A model generated the notes under the pieces. That model saw only the letters and a list, made by a program, of their open reading frames with translations, did no database searches and had not been told where the DNA came from. Below, in pieces: positions 2,360 through 40,964 of a stretch of 64,000 nt of DNA. Position 1 is the first letter of the stretch; the number at the start of each line of letters is the position of its first letter. A program made the translations under genes and the position numbers. This stretch comes from a virus, in UHGV virus genome UHGV-0018629. One strand, 5' to 3'.

Positions 2360-2703
2360 CTAGTACTCAATCCTCGATTATAAGAATCTACTAAACGGTC
2401 AACCATTGAATGACAAGCGGCTTTGTCTTTTTCCTCCGCAACTGAGCATTCTAAGGTATTCCACTTTTTAGCATATCGTTTTAATAATGTATCGTTTTTG
2501 TATCTACTTGTCTTATCTCTTTCTCCGTCTTTATATGCATATATTAATTTCTGCGCAAACTCAGATTGACATGCTTTATTTTTCCCACAATAATCTGCCG
2601 CAGTGCGGTTCACATACTCCCTAATTTCAGTATATGATGTATCTGCTGACGCATAAGCAGAAAATGAAATTAATCCTATACATAAAACCAAAATTTTAGT
2701 CAT
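2356..2703 (-). CDS. vs: Secreted small protein (Vs position and length: 115 aa)
   Basis: 115 aa with cleavable-looking signal peptide MTKILVLCIGLISFSAYASA; position between macro-domain gene and regB as T4 vs. Confidence 0.45.
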   Translation of the reverse strand: MTKILVLCIGLISFSAYASADTSYTEIREYVNRTAADYCGKNKACQSEFAQKLIYAYKDGERDKTSRYKNDTLLKRYAKKWNTLECSVAEEKDKAACHSMVDRLVDSYNRGLSTR

Positions 2704-3241
2704 TTACTATTTCCAAAAGTTTATTATTTTTAAGGTAATTAGCCTTTTCTAGGACTTCAGAAGCATATTTAGAACCTGCTTTAACATTCCATCCCGAATT
2801 ATAAGAGGATATTGCTTTTCTTATATCACCCTTATGTATATTTAACCAATAAGAAAGTTCAATGTACGCCCATGAAGCTGAATTGGATCGTTTATTCAAC
2901 ATTCTTTTTATTTCAGCATCGGTCATATTATAACCAAGTTCCTTAACTCTTGCTCGCATAGTAGGCAAATAATTTTGGAACATTCCATAAGCGTGATGCT
3001 TTGGTTTAGATTTTAAATTAACTCCGCCAGAGCTTTCTTGCCATAAAATGGCTGCCATTATATGACCTAATCCACTCTTATGAACATTTTGGTGTGTTTT
3101 ATATTTTCCATCCTTAGAAAATTGTTCCCCGAATTGATATGCGTAACGCATGTTATCGAGTTGGACATTACTGAAAGTATGCTCGGAGCTATGTGCCATC
3201 ATAGAAATGGCCAATAGACCAGCGAGTAGTGCTTTTCTCAT
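2696..3241 (-). CDS. Secreted lytic transglycosylase-like protein (vs.1 position)
   Basis: 181 aa, signal peptide, QESSGG...AYGMFQ resembling SLT-domain ES and GLMQ motifs. Confidence 0.55.
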   Translation of the reverse strand: MRKALLAGLLAISMMAHSSEHTFSNVQLDNMRYAYQFGEQFSKDGKYKTHQNVHKSGLGHIMAAILWQESSGGVNLKSKPKHHAYGMFQNYLPTMRARVKELGYNMTDAEIKRMLNKRSNSASWAYIELSYWLNIHKGDIRKAISSYNSGWNVKAGSKYASEVLEKANYLKNNKLLEIVND

Positions 3242-3248
3242 GTTTACC

Positions 3249-3710
3249 TCATTGAGTTTTAATTACTGCTTTAGAAGCCTTTCCTGGTAAACGACGACTG
3301 TTGATAATTGCCATCCTGCATTGAAGTGACGGGTCTTTGAACTTCTCATTAGGTTTACAAACCGTAAATCCAAGCCAAAGATTTCCATCAGTGATTTCTA
3401 AACGTCCAGGGCGATATTCAATTCCATCGATAAAATCTTCATCAATATCAGGACGCGGAGGCATACTCAGGAATTCATTAACTTCTAAAACATGGTCTTT
3501 TATTTTATGGAATAATTCAAAAACGTATGTCTCATCAATCTCCCGTTGAATTGCGCGATCAAGAAGATGTTGAGAATATTTTAGATGAAACGATGAGACC
3601 CCTGCTGCTTTTGATGCCTCACGAATCTCATTGTTAATTTGACGAAACTCCGACTCAAAGTGACGACGAAGCTTATTTCGACGGATAAAAACTTCTGTGT
3701 TGATAGTCAT
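3249..3710 (-). CDS. regB: RegB sequence-specific endoribonuclease
   Basis: 153 aa, N-terminus MTINTEVFIRRNKLRRHFESEF matches T4 RegB as recalled; conserved position. Confidence 0.85.
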   Translation of the reverse strand: MTINTEVFIRRNKLRRHFESEFRQINNEIREASKAAGVSSFHLKYSQHLLDRAIQREIDETYVFELFHKIKDHVLEVNEFLSMPPRPDIDEDFIDGIEYRPGRLEITDGNLWLGFTVCKPNEKFKDPSLQCRMAIINSRRLPGKASKAVIKTQ

Positions 3711-12200: not shown

Positions 12201-12674
12201 TTATTTGATTTGTTTAGCAGACCAAATGCGGTCTTTAATAATTTTTTGGATGTCTTCAACATACTCAAGAGAGTGAACATGTGGATTATCTTTGAAACTA
12301 TAAGCACGGGCTAACTTTTGGCCTTCGGTCTTAATTATCAAAAGTTCTTTAAGAATTGCTTCATATTTAGAGATAATTCCTTTAACGATATTTTTTTCTT
12401 GTGCGGCTTTAGGATCTGCTTTAGGAGCAGGTTTACCTGAAGCCTTTGCAAAAGCAGCGCCAGTAGCAACTAGACTTTTCCAGGCCATACTAACCGCATT
12501 TCCTGTAAATCCTTCTGCTTTCATGTCGCGAGCAAATTGGAATCGTGATTCATCAGAAGCATCTTTATAAGAATATTTACCCGCTGCAATGGCTGCTTTT
12601 GCAACAGCTTGAATTTCGGTGCTAGATGCTTCATTTAACACCGCTTCATTTAAAAATTGAGTATATGATTTCAT
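12201..12674 (-). CDS. Internal-protein-like gene with capsid-targeting sequence
   Basis: 157 aa; N-terminus MKSYTQFLNE|AV; flanked by identical terminator repeats. Confidence 0.55.
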   Translation of the reverse strand: MKSYTQFLNEAVLNEASSTEIQAVAKAAIAAGKYSYKDASDESRFQFARDMKAEGFTGNAVSMAWKSLVATGAAFAKASGKPAPKADPKAAQEKNIVKGIISKYEAILKELLIIKTEGQKLARAYSFKDNPHVHSLEYVEDIQKIIKDRIWSAKQIK

Positions 12675-12717
12675 CTTATTTCCTGTTTTAATTCGTGGCT
12701 TTAATATACTTATTTAT

Positions 12718-12751
12718 ACTAAAAAGCCCCAACCTTTTGGTCGGGGCTAAG
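12718..12751 (-). terminator. Intrinsic terminator, repeat copy B (34/34 identical to 12163..12196)
   Basis: Perfect direct repeat. Confidence 0.75.
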
Positions 12752-13035
12752 CCTTGCGGCAACCTTGTCGGGGTTCCACCTGCTAAGGCAAGTGTTTGTA
12801 CGAAACGCCGGGATTCGAACCCGGTTATTAAGCAGTTGACGCTACTCAATATTTTTAAAAGGCCATATCTCGACCATATCCGAACGTTCCGTCGAAAACG
12901 CTACTCAGCTTACGGCAAAGATATTTCCTCGAATCGATAATTCGGTGCGCCGTTTCTGCTGTGATATAAGGGGGCATCAATAAACACAAAGATTATTAAC
13001 GCAATTCCTTACTCAGGGAACATCAGTCCGACGAC
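12752..13035 (-). ncRNA. Candidate structured non-coding region with tRNA T-arm-like hairpin (ccggg-ttcgaat-cccgg)
   Basis: No ORF above about 22 codons on the minus strand; GC content visibly above phage background; no full cloverleaf could be folded by eye. Confidence 0.3.
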
Positions 13036-13590
13036 TTACCGGTAGCGACCCGGTTTCTCATTTGGTATTTCAAATTGTGTAGATTTAGTATCTAATTTTT
13101 TAACTACGGAACTTATGTCATGAAAGAAAAACCATTCGCCATTTATATGGTCCTGATTATAAATGCTGTGCATATATTTTTCAAGTTCTACTGCATCCTG
13201 GGAATATCTAAATGATACTATTTTAAAACTTTTAAACGGTGAAAATGTATTTGCTGTTATAACTCTAACATCGGGTTCTATACTTCTTCCTATTTTATAA
13301 TAATTAGGATTTGTAGTATCTACCATTATGTATACGAAAGCCTGTCGATAGCTTTTTTCTATATCAAATTCATCTTTAAATTTCAAAAGATTTAGGGCGG
13401 CAGTCCTACAAAATACTTTCCATTTTGACAAACGTTTGGCTTCAGTCATAGAAAAGAATTTTTTCTTATCTGTTATTTTAAGAAAAGCAACATTTTCAAT
13501 TAGTTCTTGTGTTATTTCAAAATTACCATGGTATATTAATCCAGCTTTTATAGCCAAATTAATTTGGTCCCAGTCTACATCACTTCTCAT
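13036..13590 (-). CDS. T5orf172/MUG113-like (GIY-YIG-related) domain protein
   Basis: 184 aa; C-terminal half VYIMVDTTNPNYYKIGRS...R...LEKYMH...GEWFF fits the T5orf172 pattern. Confidence 0.5.
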   Translation of the reverse strand: MRSDVDWDQINLAIKAGLIYHGNFEITQELIENVAFLKITDKKKFFSMTEAKRLSKWKVFCRTAALNLLKFKDEFDIEKSYRQAFVYIMVDTTNPNYYKIGRSIEPDVRVITANTFSPFKSFKIVSFRYSQDAVELEKYMHSIYNQDHINGEWFFFHDISSVVKKLDTKSTQFEIPNEKPGRYR

Positions 13591-13611
13591 AATATTATTC
13601 TCTCAATAATT

Positions 13612-13688
13612 TGGCCAGGGTGAAAGGATTCTAACCTTTAACCTGCGGTTTAGAGGACCGCTACTCTATACAATTGAGTTACACCCCG
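13612..13688 (-). tRNA. tRNA-Arg (anticodon UCU), CCA encoded
   Basis: Hand-folded cloverleaf: acceptor cggggtg/caccctg, anticodon arm gcggt-cctctaa-accgc; atypical D- and T-loops. Confidence 0.55.
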
Positions 13689-13813
13689 TAATTAGTTCAC
13701 AGCAATACCTACTCCAACAATCAAGATGTCTTCACACGAAATTAAGAGAAGAGTGATCAGTTCAACCCTATAATCGCGTCAAGTAGATATTAATGTGACA
13801 GTTGTCACAAATT
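13689..13813 (-). ncRNA. Candidate small stable RNA between tRNA-Arg and tRNA-Asn
   Basis: 125-nt non-coding spacer in a co-transcribed tRNA cluster; contains hairpin tgtgac/gtcaca; analogous to T4 species 1/2 RNAs by position only. Confidence 0.25.
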
Positions 13814-13888
13814 TGGCGGACGTGATAGGATTCGAACCTATAACCAATCGCTTAACAGGCGATCGCTCTGCCATTGAGCTACACATCC
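13814..13888 (-). tRNA. tRNA-Asn (anticodon GUU), CCA encoded
   Basis: Cloverleaf: acceptor ggatgtg/cacgtcc, anticodon loop ctgttaa, T-loop ttcgaat. Confidence 0.75.
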
Positions 13889-13892
13889 AAAT

Positions 13893-13979
13893 TGGTGGGG
13901 AGTGATGGAGTCGAACCACCCGAGTCGCAATGACAATGGATTTACAGTCCACACCGCTACCTCTACGGGATAACTCCCC
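13893..13979 (-). tRNA. tRNA-Tyr (anticodon GUA), type II with long variable arm, CCA encoded
   Basis: Acceptor ggggagt/actcccc, anticodon loop ctgtaaa. Confidence 0.75.
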
Positions 13980-13992
13980 TTAATTCTTAATT

Positions 13993-14067
13993 TGGTGGCC
14001 CTGGGTGGAATTGAACCACCATCTGGCGATTATGAGTCGCTTGCTTGAACCTTCCAGCTACAGGGCC
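13993..14067 (-). tRNA. tRNA with CAU anticodon (Met, or Ile if lysidine-modified as in T4)
   Basis: Acceptor ggccctg/cagggcc, anticodon loop ctcataa. Confidence 0.75.
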
Positions 14068-14068
14068 T

Positions 14069-14144
14069 TGGTGCTGATTGACGGAATCGAACCGCCGACC
14101 TTCTCATTACAAGTGAGTTGCTCTACCTACTGAGCTAAATCAGC
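14069..14144 (-). tRNA. tRNA-Thr (anticodon UGU)
   Basis: Acceptor gctgatt/aatcagc, anticodon loop cttgtaa, T-loop ttcgatt. Confidence 0.75.
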
Positions 14145-14149
14145 AAAAC

Positions 14150-14239
14150 TGGCGGAGGCGATAGGATTTGAACCTATGAGTCACCGGAGCGACTGCCGGT
14201 TTTCAAGACCGGTGCATTAAACCACTCTGCCACGCCTCC
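14150..14239 (-). tRNA. tRNA-Ser (anticodon UGA), type II
   Basis: Acceptor ggaggcg/cgcctcc, anticodon arm ccggt-cttgaaa-accgg, long variable arm. Confidence 0.75.
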
Positions 14240-14245
14240 AAATAT

Positions 14246-14896
14246 TTATATATTGTTAATTTGATTTAGAATTCTTTTTGCTTGAGTATGACTTACGCCA
14301 ATATGCTTAGCATATTTAGATAATTCGCCACGCTTAGAAAAATCATATAATTTAGAAATTTCTATTCTTCTTTTTCTTTCATCCGCAGAAACTTTTGCTT
14401 CGTTTGCTTTTGCTATTTTACGTTTAGCTTCTTGAGAATGAGTTTTACCAGCAAAGCCATTCTTCATTAATCCATTTGAAGACCATCCTTTTAATTTTCC
14501 GTTAGAATGTGCCTTTTTAACACCCAATGAAATTAATTCACGTTGCTGATCTGTCATAGGATAATTATTTATATGATCCCATCCACCTTCACCTCCAAGT
14601 TTTAAATTATACACATCTGGTCTATTTAAAAACTCTTCTGTGACAATATTTTTCTCGGCTTCAAGCATAGATTCTTTATCATCAAAATACTCTAATATTT
14701 CTTTAGAAAAATTTTCTATACCATATTTATCTTGGGCTCTTTTTAATAATTTACCAGAACCCATATATCCATCATCTAAATTTTCGGTAGAATGCACACC
14801 AATATAAATTTTATTATTAATTTTATTTGTTATTTTATAAAGATAAAAATGCATATCAGTCCCTAATAAAGAACTGAGCGTCTCACGACGAGTCAT
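14246..14896 (-). CDS. segB: GIY-YIG homing endonuclease (SegB-like) inside the tRNA cluster
   Basis: 216 aa; N-terminal GIY-YIG motif YLYKITNKINNKIYIGVHST, basic C-terminal DNA-binding region; lies between tRNA-Gly and tRNA-Ser. Confidence 0.75.
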   Translation of the reverse strand: MTRRETLSSLLGTDMHFYLYKITNKINNKIYIGVHSTENLDDGYMGSGKLLKRAQDKYGIENFSKEILEYFDDKESMLEAEKNIVTEEFLNRPDVYNLKLGGEGGWDHINNYPMTDQQRELISLGVKKAHSNGKLKGWSSNGLMKNGFAGKTHSQEAKRKIAKANEAKVSADERKRRIEISKLYDFSKRGELSKYAKHIGVSHTQAKRILNQINNI

Positions 14897-14900
14897 AAAT

Positions 14901-14974
<74 letters not shown>

Positions 14975-14979
14975 AAATT

Positions 14980-15066
14980 TGGTGCGAGAAGTGGGACTCG
15001 AACCCACAAGGAAATCATTCCGCAGCATTTTAAGTGCTGTGCCTTTACCAATTTGACCATTCTCGC
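14980..15066 (-). tRNA. tRNA-Leu (anticodon UAA), type II
   Basis: Acceptor gcgagaa/ttctcgc, anticodon arm cagca-cttaaaa-tgctg. Confidence 0.75.
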
Positions 15067-15067
15067 G

Positions 15068-15140
15068 CTGGGAATAAAGGACTCGAACCTTTGCATCCTG
15101 GAATCAAAATCCAGTGCCTTACCAACTTGGCTAATTCCCA
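15068..15140 (-). tRNA. tRNA-Gln (anticodon UUG), no encoded CCA, abuts tRNA-Leu
   Basis: Acceptor tgggaat/attccca, anticodon arm ctgga-ttttgat-tccag; one nt separates it from tRNA-Leu. Confidence 0.7.

Positions 15141-37829: not shown

Positions 37830-40964
<3,135 letters not shown>

Follow-up and report, generated by a model that had tools for sequence, protein, structure and literature searches.

The rnaD and rnaC small RNA genes of a T4-like phage, with a putative homing-type T5orf172 gene inserted beside them

We analysed a stretch of 64,000 nt of the virus genome UHGV-0018629 (called the window below), and in particular an open reading frame (ORF) at 13036-13590 and the tract that follows it at 12752-13035. 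As judged from sequence comparisons, this part of the window is the transfer RNA (tRNA) region of a Tequatrovirus, and all its genes are on the minus strand. Nearly all matches to the 1.1 kb around the tract are Tequatrovirus (T4-like) phages of Escherichia, Shigella and Yersinia (732 records), the closest of which, LF82-9, REP2/3, UFV-AREG1 and teqskov, are 98.5-98.7% identical. ARAGORN found nine tRNAs at 13612-15140 (Gln, Leu, Gly, Ser, Thr, Met, Tyr, Asn and Arg) and no tRNA or transfer-messenger RNA (tmRNA) within 12752-13035. In the direction of transcription, tRNA-Arg (anticodon UCU; 13612-13688; 59.3 bits with the Rfam tRNA model) is followed by the ORF, which has an ATG start and codes for a protein of 184 residues, and then by two small stable RNA genes, rnaD (12943-13061, 119 nt) and rnaC (12799-12937, 139 nt), a trailer and an intrinsic terminator.

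On the basis of sequence identity, the tract almost certainly corresponds to the resident rnaD/rnaC pair of T4-type phages, with a trailer that runs to the terminator. In the T4 reference genome (NC_000866), rnaD (71053-71171) and rnaC (70908-71046) are annotated as 'small, stable RNA', species 2 and species 1, respectively. The rnaD sequence aligns end to end with its T4 counterpart (118/119 nt, 96.6% identity), and both start at the same place with respect to the ...ACCAA junction. That of rnaC aligns over 139/139 nt with 97.1% identity to T4 and 98.6% identity to RB33. Both genes are annotated in T4, RB33 and T2L, and the tract aligns with RB33, where they are called 'rnaD, species II RNA' and 'rnaC', at 453/469. 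The tract is present in ~804 phage records, 680 of which contain at least 80% of it. The order of the genes (tRNA-Arg, rnaD, rnaC, terminator, late promoter) and their strand context are also those of T4. In contrast with T4, where rnaD starts 2 nt after tRNA-Arg, a 555-bp ORF separates the two genes here. Thus, in T4 and RB33, tRNA-Arg abuts rnaD (...ACCA-A-AUGAGAAACCGGG), whereas the ORF of the window ends with ...GAAATACCAAATGAGAAACCGGGTCGCTACCGGTAA, across the old junction, such that its last 26 nt (13036-13061), i.e. the last eight codons and the stop codon, overlap the 5' end of rnaD. Most relatives align with the window only from 13066, which immediately follows their tRNA-Arg.

A previous sequence-only reading of this region had described a GC-rich tract with a T-arm-like hairpin, and had proposed that it might be a tRNA remnant, a small stable RNA or the target or product of a mobile-element event. 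The composition and the hairpin are as described, with a GC content of 0.41-0.45 across 12700-13099 vs 0.28-0.30 in the ORF and a T-arm-like sequence, CCGGGTTCGAATCCCGG, at 12808-12824. It is the small stable RNA proposal that the homology search has borne out, while the tRNA remnant does not fit a structure whose pairing is kept by compensatory changes across several genera. As for the mobile-element event, it applies to the ORF and tRNA-Arg and not to the tract, which is resident in ~800 records devoid of the ORF. The limits of the tract also need correcting, since rnaD starts inside the ORF, at 13061, and not at its end. The claim that the tract contains no ORF above ~22 codons holds for ATG starts; however, three ORFs with TTG or GTG starts, of 44, 53 and 81 codons, cross it, none of which is conserved among relatives. 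Finally, the lack of any covariance-model match had been put forward as an argument against a structured RNA. Rfam scans of the tract at both thresholds (E values up to 10) indeed returned noise only (isrK, 16.5 bits; anti-hemB, 15.1 bits), yet apparently for the sole reason that Rfam holds no rnaC/rnaD family.

The two RNAs have been known from phage T4 since the 1970s, for ~50 years, and the tract is nothing new in kind. T4 RNAC and RNAD are late transcripts, as seen by Northern blot (PMC9697503), and no function has been assigned to them (PMC3014915, PMC12685909). A convergent single-nucleotide polymorphism was reported in rnaD of a laboratory-evolved T4-like phage (PMC12685909).

We predicted the fold of rnaC on the minus strand, as the sequence-only reading had suggested. 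Its minimum free energy structure (-48 kcal/mol, z -3.6) agrees with the RNAalifold consensus and comprises four parts, namely an acceptor-like stem, a hairpin of ~65 nt that occupies the position of a D-arm, a 10-bp hairpin (12826-12851) in the position of an anticodon arm and a T-arm (CCGGG-UUCGAAU-CCCGG) directly after it. The acceptor-like stem has seven positions, CG(A/G)UUCG facing CGUU(U/C)CG, with two U-U mismatches. The 10-bp hairpin has four pairs with compensatory changes and a loop, GCGUCAAC, that is invariant in 18/18 distinct sequences. In the T-arm, a G-C pair is replaced by U-A in Karam- and Kanagawavirus phages. Compensatory changes were already apparent in 14/45 pairs among only six sequences. 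A search with a covariance model of rnaC then retrieved 24 copies. These represent 18 distinct sequences, in which 98.9% of the cells are paired. Changes on both sides affect 15/45 pairs, vs 4.0 +/- 1.3 in shuffled alignments and at most 4 in slid controls, and none of 500 shuffles reached the observed count. Covariation thus strongly supports the tRNA-like fold of rnaC.

The T-arm core, GGTTCRANTCC, occurs nine times in the window vs 0.18 expected by chance, seven of them in called tRNAs and one in rnaC. The latter (12811-12821) is a perfect match to the core recognition motif of the homing endonuclease SegB (PMC2330249). One more exact core, GGTTCAAATCC at 40053-40063 on the minus strand, lies far from the tRNA cluster and may be due to chance.

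The conservation of rnaC, its non-tRNA hairpins included, extends over Tequatro-, Gapriver-, Mosig-, Karam- and Kanagawavirus. The copies of Karamvirus and Kanagawavirus phages are 80-86% identical and occur without rnaD. In the Karamvirus-like contig L086 (355-500, minus strand), it is located between tRNA-Met and tRNA-Gly with 3-nt spacers, i.e. it is placed like a tRNA gene. A second, weak match to the rnaC model in the same contig turned out to be tRNA-Gln and not an rnaC paralog. We also searched bacterial genomes (596 Gb) for the loop-plus-stem pattern of rnaC. With 16 specified bases, this limited pattern search yielded 59 matches vs ~277 expected, no more than chance, and the covariance model confirmed none of them (best score 13.6 bits, E value 0.9), so that it revealed no bacterial homolog.

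Despite the shape of rnaC, neither ARAGORN nor the Rfam tRNA model (RF00005, E values up to 10) calls a cloverleaf in it, and in place of an anticodon arm with a 7-nt loop it has a hairpin of 10 bp whose loop is 6 nt long. Its acceptor-like stem stacked on a canonical T-arm, with extra domains, is reminiscent of the acceptor/T-arm module of tmRNA. However, it is a resemblance only: rnaC is not called as a tmRNA by ARAGORN or Rfam, has no tag reading frame and has an annotated 3' end other than NCCA. We rejected the tmRNA-like reading. The acceptor/T-arm module would most likely serve as a handle for host tRNA-processing enzymes (RNase P, 3' trimming). Processing of the RNase P type, which we infer from the shape of rnaC and the placement of its gene, would release the stable RNA from a polycistronic precursor shared with the tRNAs.

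The consensus fold of rnaD consists of a closing stem, a 5' hairpin that does not vary (CCGG-GUCGCUA-CCGG) and a long, central hairpin that does; in T2L and AnYang, another sequence takes the place of the latter. The two RNAs do not always occur together. Dhakaviruses have kept rnaD and are devoid of rnaC, and in the Dhakavirus ESCO10 (~3127-3300), rnaC has been lost precisely, with the end of rnaD joined to the trailer. As Kanagawa- and Karamviruses have rnaC only, rnaC and rnaD are separable modules.

The ORF at 13036-13590 had been described as a T5orf172-like gene, the second nuclease-like gene of the tRNA neighbourhood. Its Pfam scores are in line with this prediction, as they are above both curated cut-offs (MUG113, 38.4 bits for a cut-off of 22.3; T5orf172, 28.1 for a cut-off of 20; residues 85-157). 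The protein comprises an N-terminal helical domain (approximately residues 7-74) and a C-terminal nuclease-fold domain (approximately residues 84-170). Its AlphaFold model is confident (predicted local distance difference test, pLDDT, 91.4), with a helical N-terminal domain followed by an alpha/beta domain of the GIY-YIG fold. The signature residues of the family, which cover the aromatic 'GIY'-like strand, the Y-K-I-G-x-S motif, Arg, His and the presumed catalytic Glu, do not vary among 12 sequences, those of T5-like relatives included (F85, Y87, K99, G101, S103, R109, E137, H141 and E152). By analogy, these conserved residues may have catalytic-type roles. The family corresponds to phrog_5032 (E value 2.5e-59). 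It forms 12 clusters at 90% identity in a large protein collection, all from contigs of the T4-like type, and a search for related loci in IMG/VR yielded only three, indicating that it is rare there. No match was found to the family profile among PDB sequences. PADLOC gave weak matches to PDC-S57 and PD-Lambda-1, which are due solely to the T5orf172 domain that they have in common with the protein. Public records call the product hypothetical, with the addition of 'similar to BF23 ORF172c' in VR7. The label 'head vertex protein' given to a T5orf172 ORF in one record (ESCO10, 2598-3152) is likely an annotation error.

The ORF belongs to a cassette that has defined boundaries, is polymorphic for its presence and shows excess identity between genera. 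Comparison with KIT03-type phages delimits a replaced segment of ~640 bp (13059-13697) that contains tRNA-Arg and the T5orf172 ORF. The alignment with KIT03 runs at 98.7% identity as far down as 13698, breaks off and resumes at 13058 with 97% identity. In the interval, KIT03 carries tRNA-His, tRNA-Arg in a different allele and an unrelated 351-bp ORF, trna.2. In comparisons with VR7 and ESCO10, similarity sets in at 13689, at the 5' boundary of tRNA-Arg. The cassette is 93.6% identical to that of the Gaprivervirus VR7 and 90.7% identical to that of ESCO10, compared with 70-86% for the flanks. We found the ORF at an identity of at least 90% in only 16 records, vs ~800 with rnaD/rnaC. Conversely, it occurs without rnaD/rnaC in Jiaodavirus, Muldoonvirus and VR26.

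The link between the ORF and tRNA-Arg(UCU) is close. In 12/14 T4-like loci, the tRNA gene ends 15-25 nt before the ATG of the ORF, and this linkage spans Tequatro-, Gapriver-, Dhaka-, Mosig-, Jiaoda- and Muldoonvirus. UFV-AREG1, VR7, ESCO10 and the Mosigvirus AV110 have the same ORF-linked tRNA-Arg allele, which differs from those of T4, RB33 and T2L, no more than a hint that alleles devoid of the ORF may be cut and its own allele spared. Its T-loop (13628-13638), GGTTAGAATCC, has a mismatch to the SegB core motif at a conserved position. The constancy of the linkage suggests where to look for the target of the ORF product. The nearest relatives outside the T4-like phages are those of Epseptimavirus (40% identity), which overlap a tRNA-Arg gene, and T5 ORF065 (29% identity to the ORF) lies between tRNA-Cys and tRNA-Asn. 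In addition, a metagenomic T4-like contig, L107, carries both a tRNA-Arg-linked T5orf172 copy and a second, weaker T5orf172/MUG113 ORF (2860-3387) between tRNA-Lys and tRNA-Asn.

We consider it probable that the locus combines the resident rnaD/rnaC pair with an inserted homing-type T5orf172 cassette beside it. For the ORF taken alone, we favour, with less confidence, a putative free-standing gene of the homing endonuclease kind. In such a scenario, its product would cut the tRNA-Arg/rnaD region of a co-infecting phage whose allele is devoid of the ORF, and repair of the double-strand break by recombination would then copy the cassette in. A more specific version, in which tRNA-Arg(UCU) and the T5orf172 gene form a self-mobilizing 'tRNA cassette' directed at rival tRNA-Arg DNA or at the tRNA-Arg/rnaD junction, is speculative and rather unlikely. 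The overlap of the two genes may have a further consequence. As the stop codon of the ORF lies inside rnaD, 5' maturation of this RNA would cut the ORF mRNA before its stop codon, and expression of the nuclease would be inversely coupled to RNA processing.

Several known systems resemble this arrangement. For ICP1 phages, genes of the T5orf172 type are documented to encode nucleases and homing endonucleases, and according to the same study T4 itself lacks them (PMC10448857); in the literature searched, we found no description of a T5orf172-type ORF for this lineage or site. With the ICP1 and T5-like genes (T5 ORF065, BF23 ORF172), the ORF shares the Pfam domain, the GIY-YIG fold, the conserved catalytic-type Glu and a free-standing, patchy occurrence, and its T5-like relatives (29-40% identity) are likewise found among tRNA genes. 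It differs from them by its small two-domain architecture, its N-terminus, which is not of the CapR/DUF723/DUF4397 zinc-finger type, and its T4-like host. The other parallel is SegB, a free-standing GIY-YIG homing endonuclease of the T4 tRNA cluster that targets T-arm DNA and whose homing co-converts flanking tRNA genes (PMC2330249). Both nuclease genes are flanked by RNA genes in one and the same tRNA cluster and are polymorphic for their presence among T-even phages, and the cassette of tRNA-Arg and ORF is suggestive of a similar co-conversion. In contrast, SegB is a classic GIY-YIG protein with NUMOD3 and not a T5orf172/MUG113 protein, its gene occupies another position, and the similarity is confined to core motifs. 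SegB-driven amplification of tRNA-Tyr has also been reported (PMC13096335), which the spread of tRNA-Arg alleles proposed here would parallel. Finally, trna.2 of T2L (phrog_3355) shares with the ORF both its point of insertion and a stop codon that overlaps rnaD at its 5' end; however, it codes for an unrelated protein of 116 residues. In AV110 (L010, 2592-3477), a T5orf172 ORF and a trna.2-like ORF are found in tandem between tRNA-Arg and rnaD, which indicates that this site accumulates insertions.

Some observations fit less well with a combination of resident structured RNAs and a homing-type insert. With its mature ends as annotated, rnaC lacks the canonical NCCA at the 3' end, and the comparative support for the rnaD fold is weaker than that for rnaC (z -1.96; 10/36 compensatory pairs; a covariation term of +0.39, i.e. 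near zero). The N-terminal helical domain of the ORF product has no recognizable DNA-binding match, and the protein lacks the CapR/DUF723 zinc-finger domains typical of the T5orf172 homing endonucleases of ICP1 (PMC10448857). Lastly, the AV110 copy of the cassette shows no excess of identity (80%, vs 74-81% for the flanks); part of the distribution of the ORF therefore looks vertical.

The other ways to account for the tract appear improbable. It could be a decaying tRNA gene with the T-arm as its last recognizable piece, given the perfect T-arm, the 7-bp acceptor-like stem and the location in a tRNA cluster whose gene content varies between phages, and rnaC may plausibly descend from a tRNA gene. 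We nevertheless regard a pseudo-tRNA as very unlikely, because tRNA searches make no call, a stable transcript is documented in T4 (PMC9697503) and the full 139-nt rnaC is conserved across five genera. Its compensatory changes and invariant loop across genera argue for purifying selection on a functional RNA and not for decay, which the covariation has largely ruled out. It is slightly less probable still that the tract encodes small proteins. The ORFs of 44-81 codons with TTG or GTG starts might suggest so, and SA20RB annotates two hypothetical coding sequences (CDSs) over the homologous DNA. Among nine relatives, however, the start, length and strand of these ORFs vary, they never begin with ATG and they are absent in ESCO10, and homologs have 1-nt indels inside them and substitutions that preserve base pairs. 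Least probable of all is that the ORF and its structured flanks constitute a mobile element with a ribozyme, such as a group I intron. A nuclease ORF beside a structured RNA, in a lineage known for group I introns (PMC2988022), would be compatible with it, yet Rfam shows no intron or ribozyme family at E values up to 10, the upstream tRNA-Arg is intact, rnaD/rnaC mostly occur without the ORF, and the ORF is also found without them, an independence that refutes this reading.

A stronger competitor, though still an unlikely one, concerns the ORF itself, which might be a T5orf172 protein domesticated for the benefit of the phage and not a selfish homing endonuclease. It might then act as a DNA-binding regulator, like CapR of PLE, as a nuclease in anti-defence or inter-phage exclusion, or as a factor acting on the tRNA/rnaD transcripts. 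Domesticated T5orf172 proteins do exist (CapR, Odn; PMC10448857), and the atypical architecture without a zinc-finger DNA-binding domain, the conservation of the protein with intact motifs in at least six genera, the constant linkage to tRNA-Arg(UCU), the overlap of its 3' end with the next RNA gene and the weak PADLOC matches through the shared domain would all suit such a role. In contrast, the patchy distribution (16 of ~800 records), the sharp edges of the cassette and the raised identity across genera are the signature of a mobile selfish gene. Moreover, catalytic-type residues are retained, and in other phages the site is taken by the unrelated insert trna.2. A homing-type gene thus remains our preferred interpretation of the ORF.

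The surroundings of the locus complete the picture. Downstream of rnaC, which forms the 3' end of the tRNA transcription unit, the trailer is followed by the intrinsic terminator, a hairpin with a T-run (12725-12748) found by a terminator scan and annotated as a terminator in SA20RB, which closes the tRNA/rnaD/rnaC transcription unit. It is followed by a T4 late-promoter motif, TATAAATA (12711-12718), for the next gene (12201-12674); in SA20RB, this motif is annotated as a late promoter. The same motif also occurs at 14243-14250 and 14566-14573 on the minus strand, at the end of and inside a SegB-like gene, respectively, upstream of the distal tRNAs, the ORF and rnaD/rnaC. These positions are consistent with the reported late expression of RNAC and RNAD. 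The SegB-like gene itself (14246-14896, minus strand), a member of the same tRNA cluster, codes for a GIY-YIG/NUMOD3 homing endonuclease according to Pfam. About 275 nt of it (14566-14840) are 99% identical to segB of T4 and RB33 and the remainder has no nucleotide match, which suggests a chimeric or domain-swapped gene. Between tRNA-Asn and the cassette, a spacer of ~117 nt (13698-13813, minus strand) is 97% conserved in ~200 T4-like phages, and no tRNA or Rfam family was called in it. In KIT03-type phages, it is followed by tRNA-His, which is absent from the window.

For want of an rnaC/rnaD model, automated pipelines miss both RNAs, and spurious small CDSs are annotated over them. The hypothetical CDSs over rnaD/rnaC in public records such as SA20RB (L002, 1578-1879) are likely such annotation errors. 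The covariance model and alignment define rnaC as a strongly constrained tRNA-like RNA with the loop GCGUCAAC, present in at least five genera of Tevenvirinae, and phages with only one of the two RNAs represent natural 'knock-outs' for functional work. These results do not overturn current understanding. They do extend the putative homing endonucleases of the T5orf172 kind into T4-like phages. If the idea of a self-mobilizing cassette were true, the allele of tRNA-Arg that belongs to it would be disseminated by homing among the T4-like genera, with possible transfer between T4-like and T5-like phages as well. A selfish gene would thereby incidentally distribute tRNA alleles, which may be relevant to escape from host defences that cleave tRNAs.

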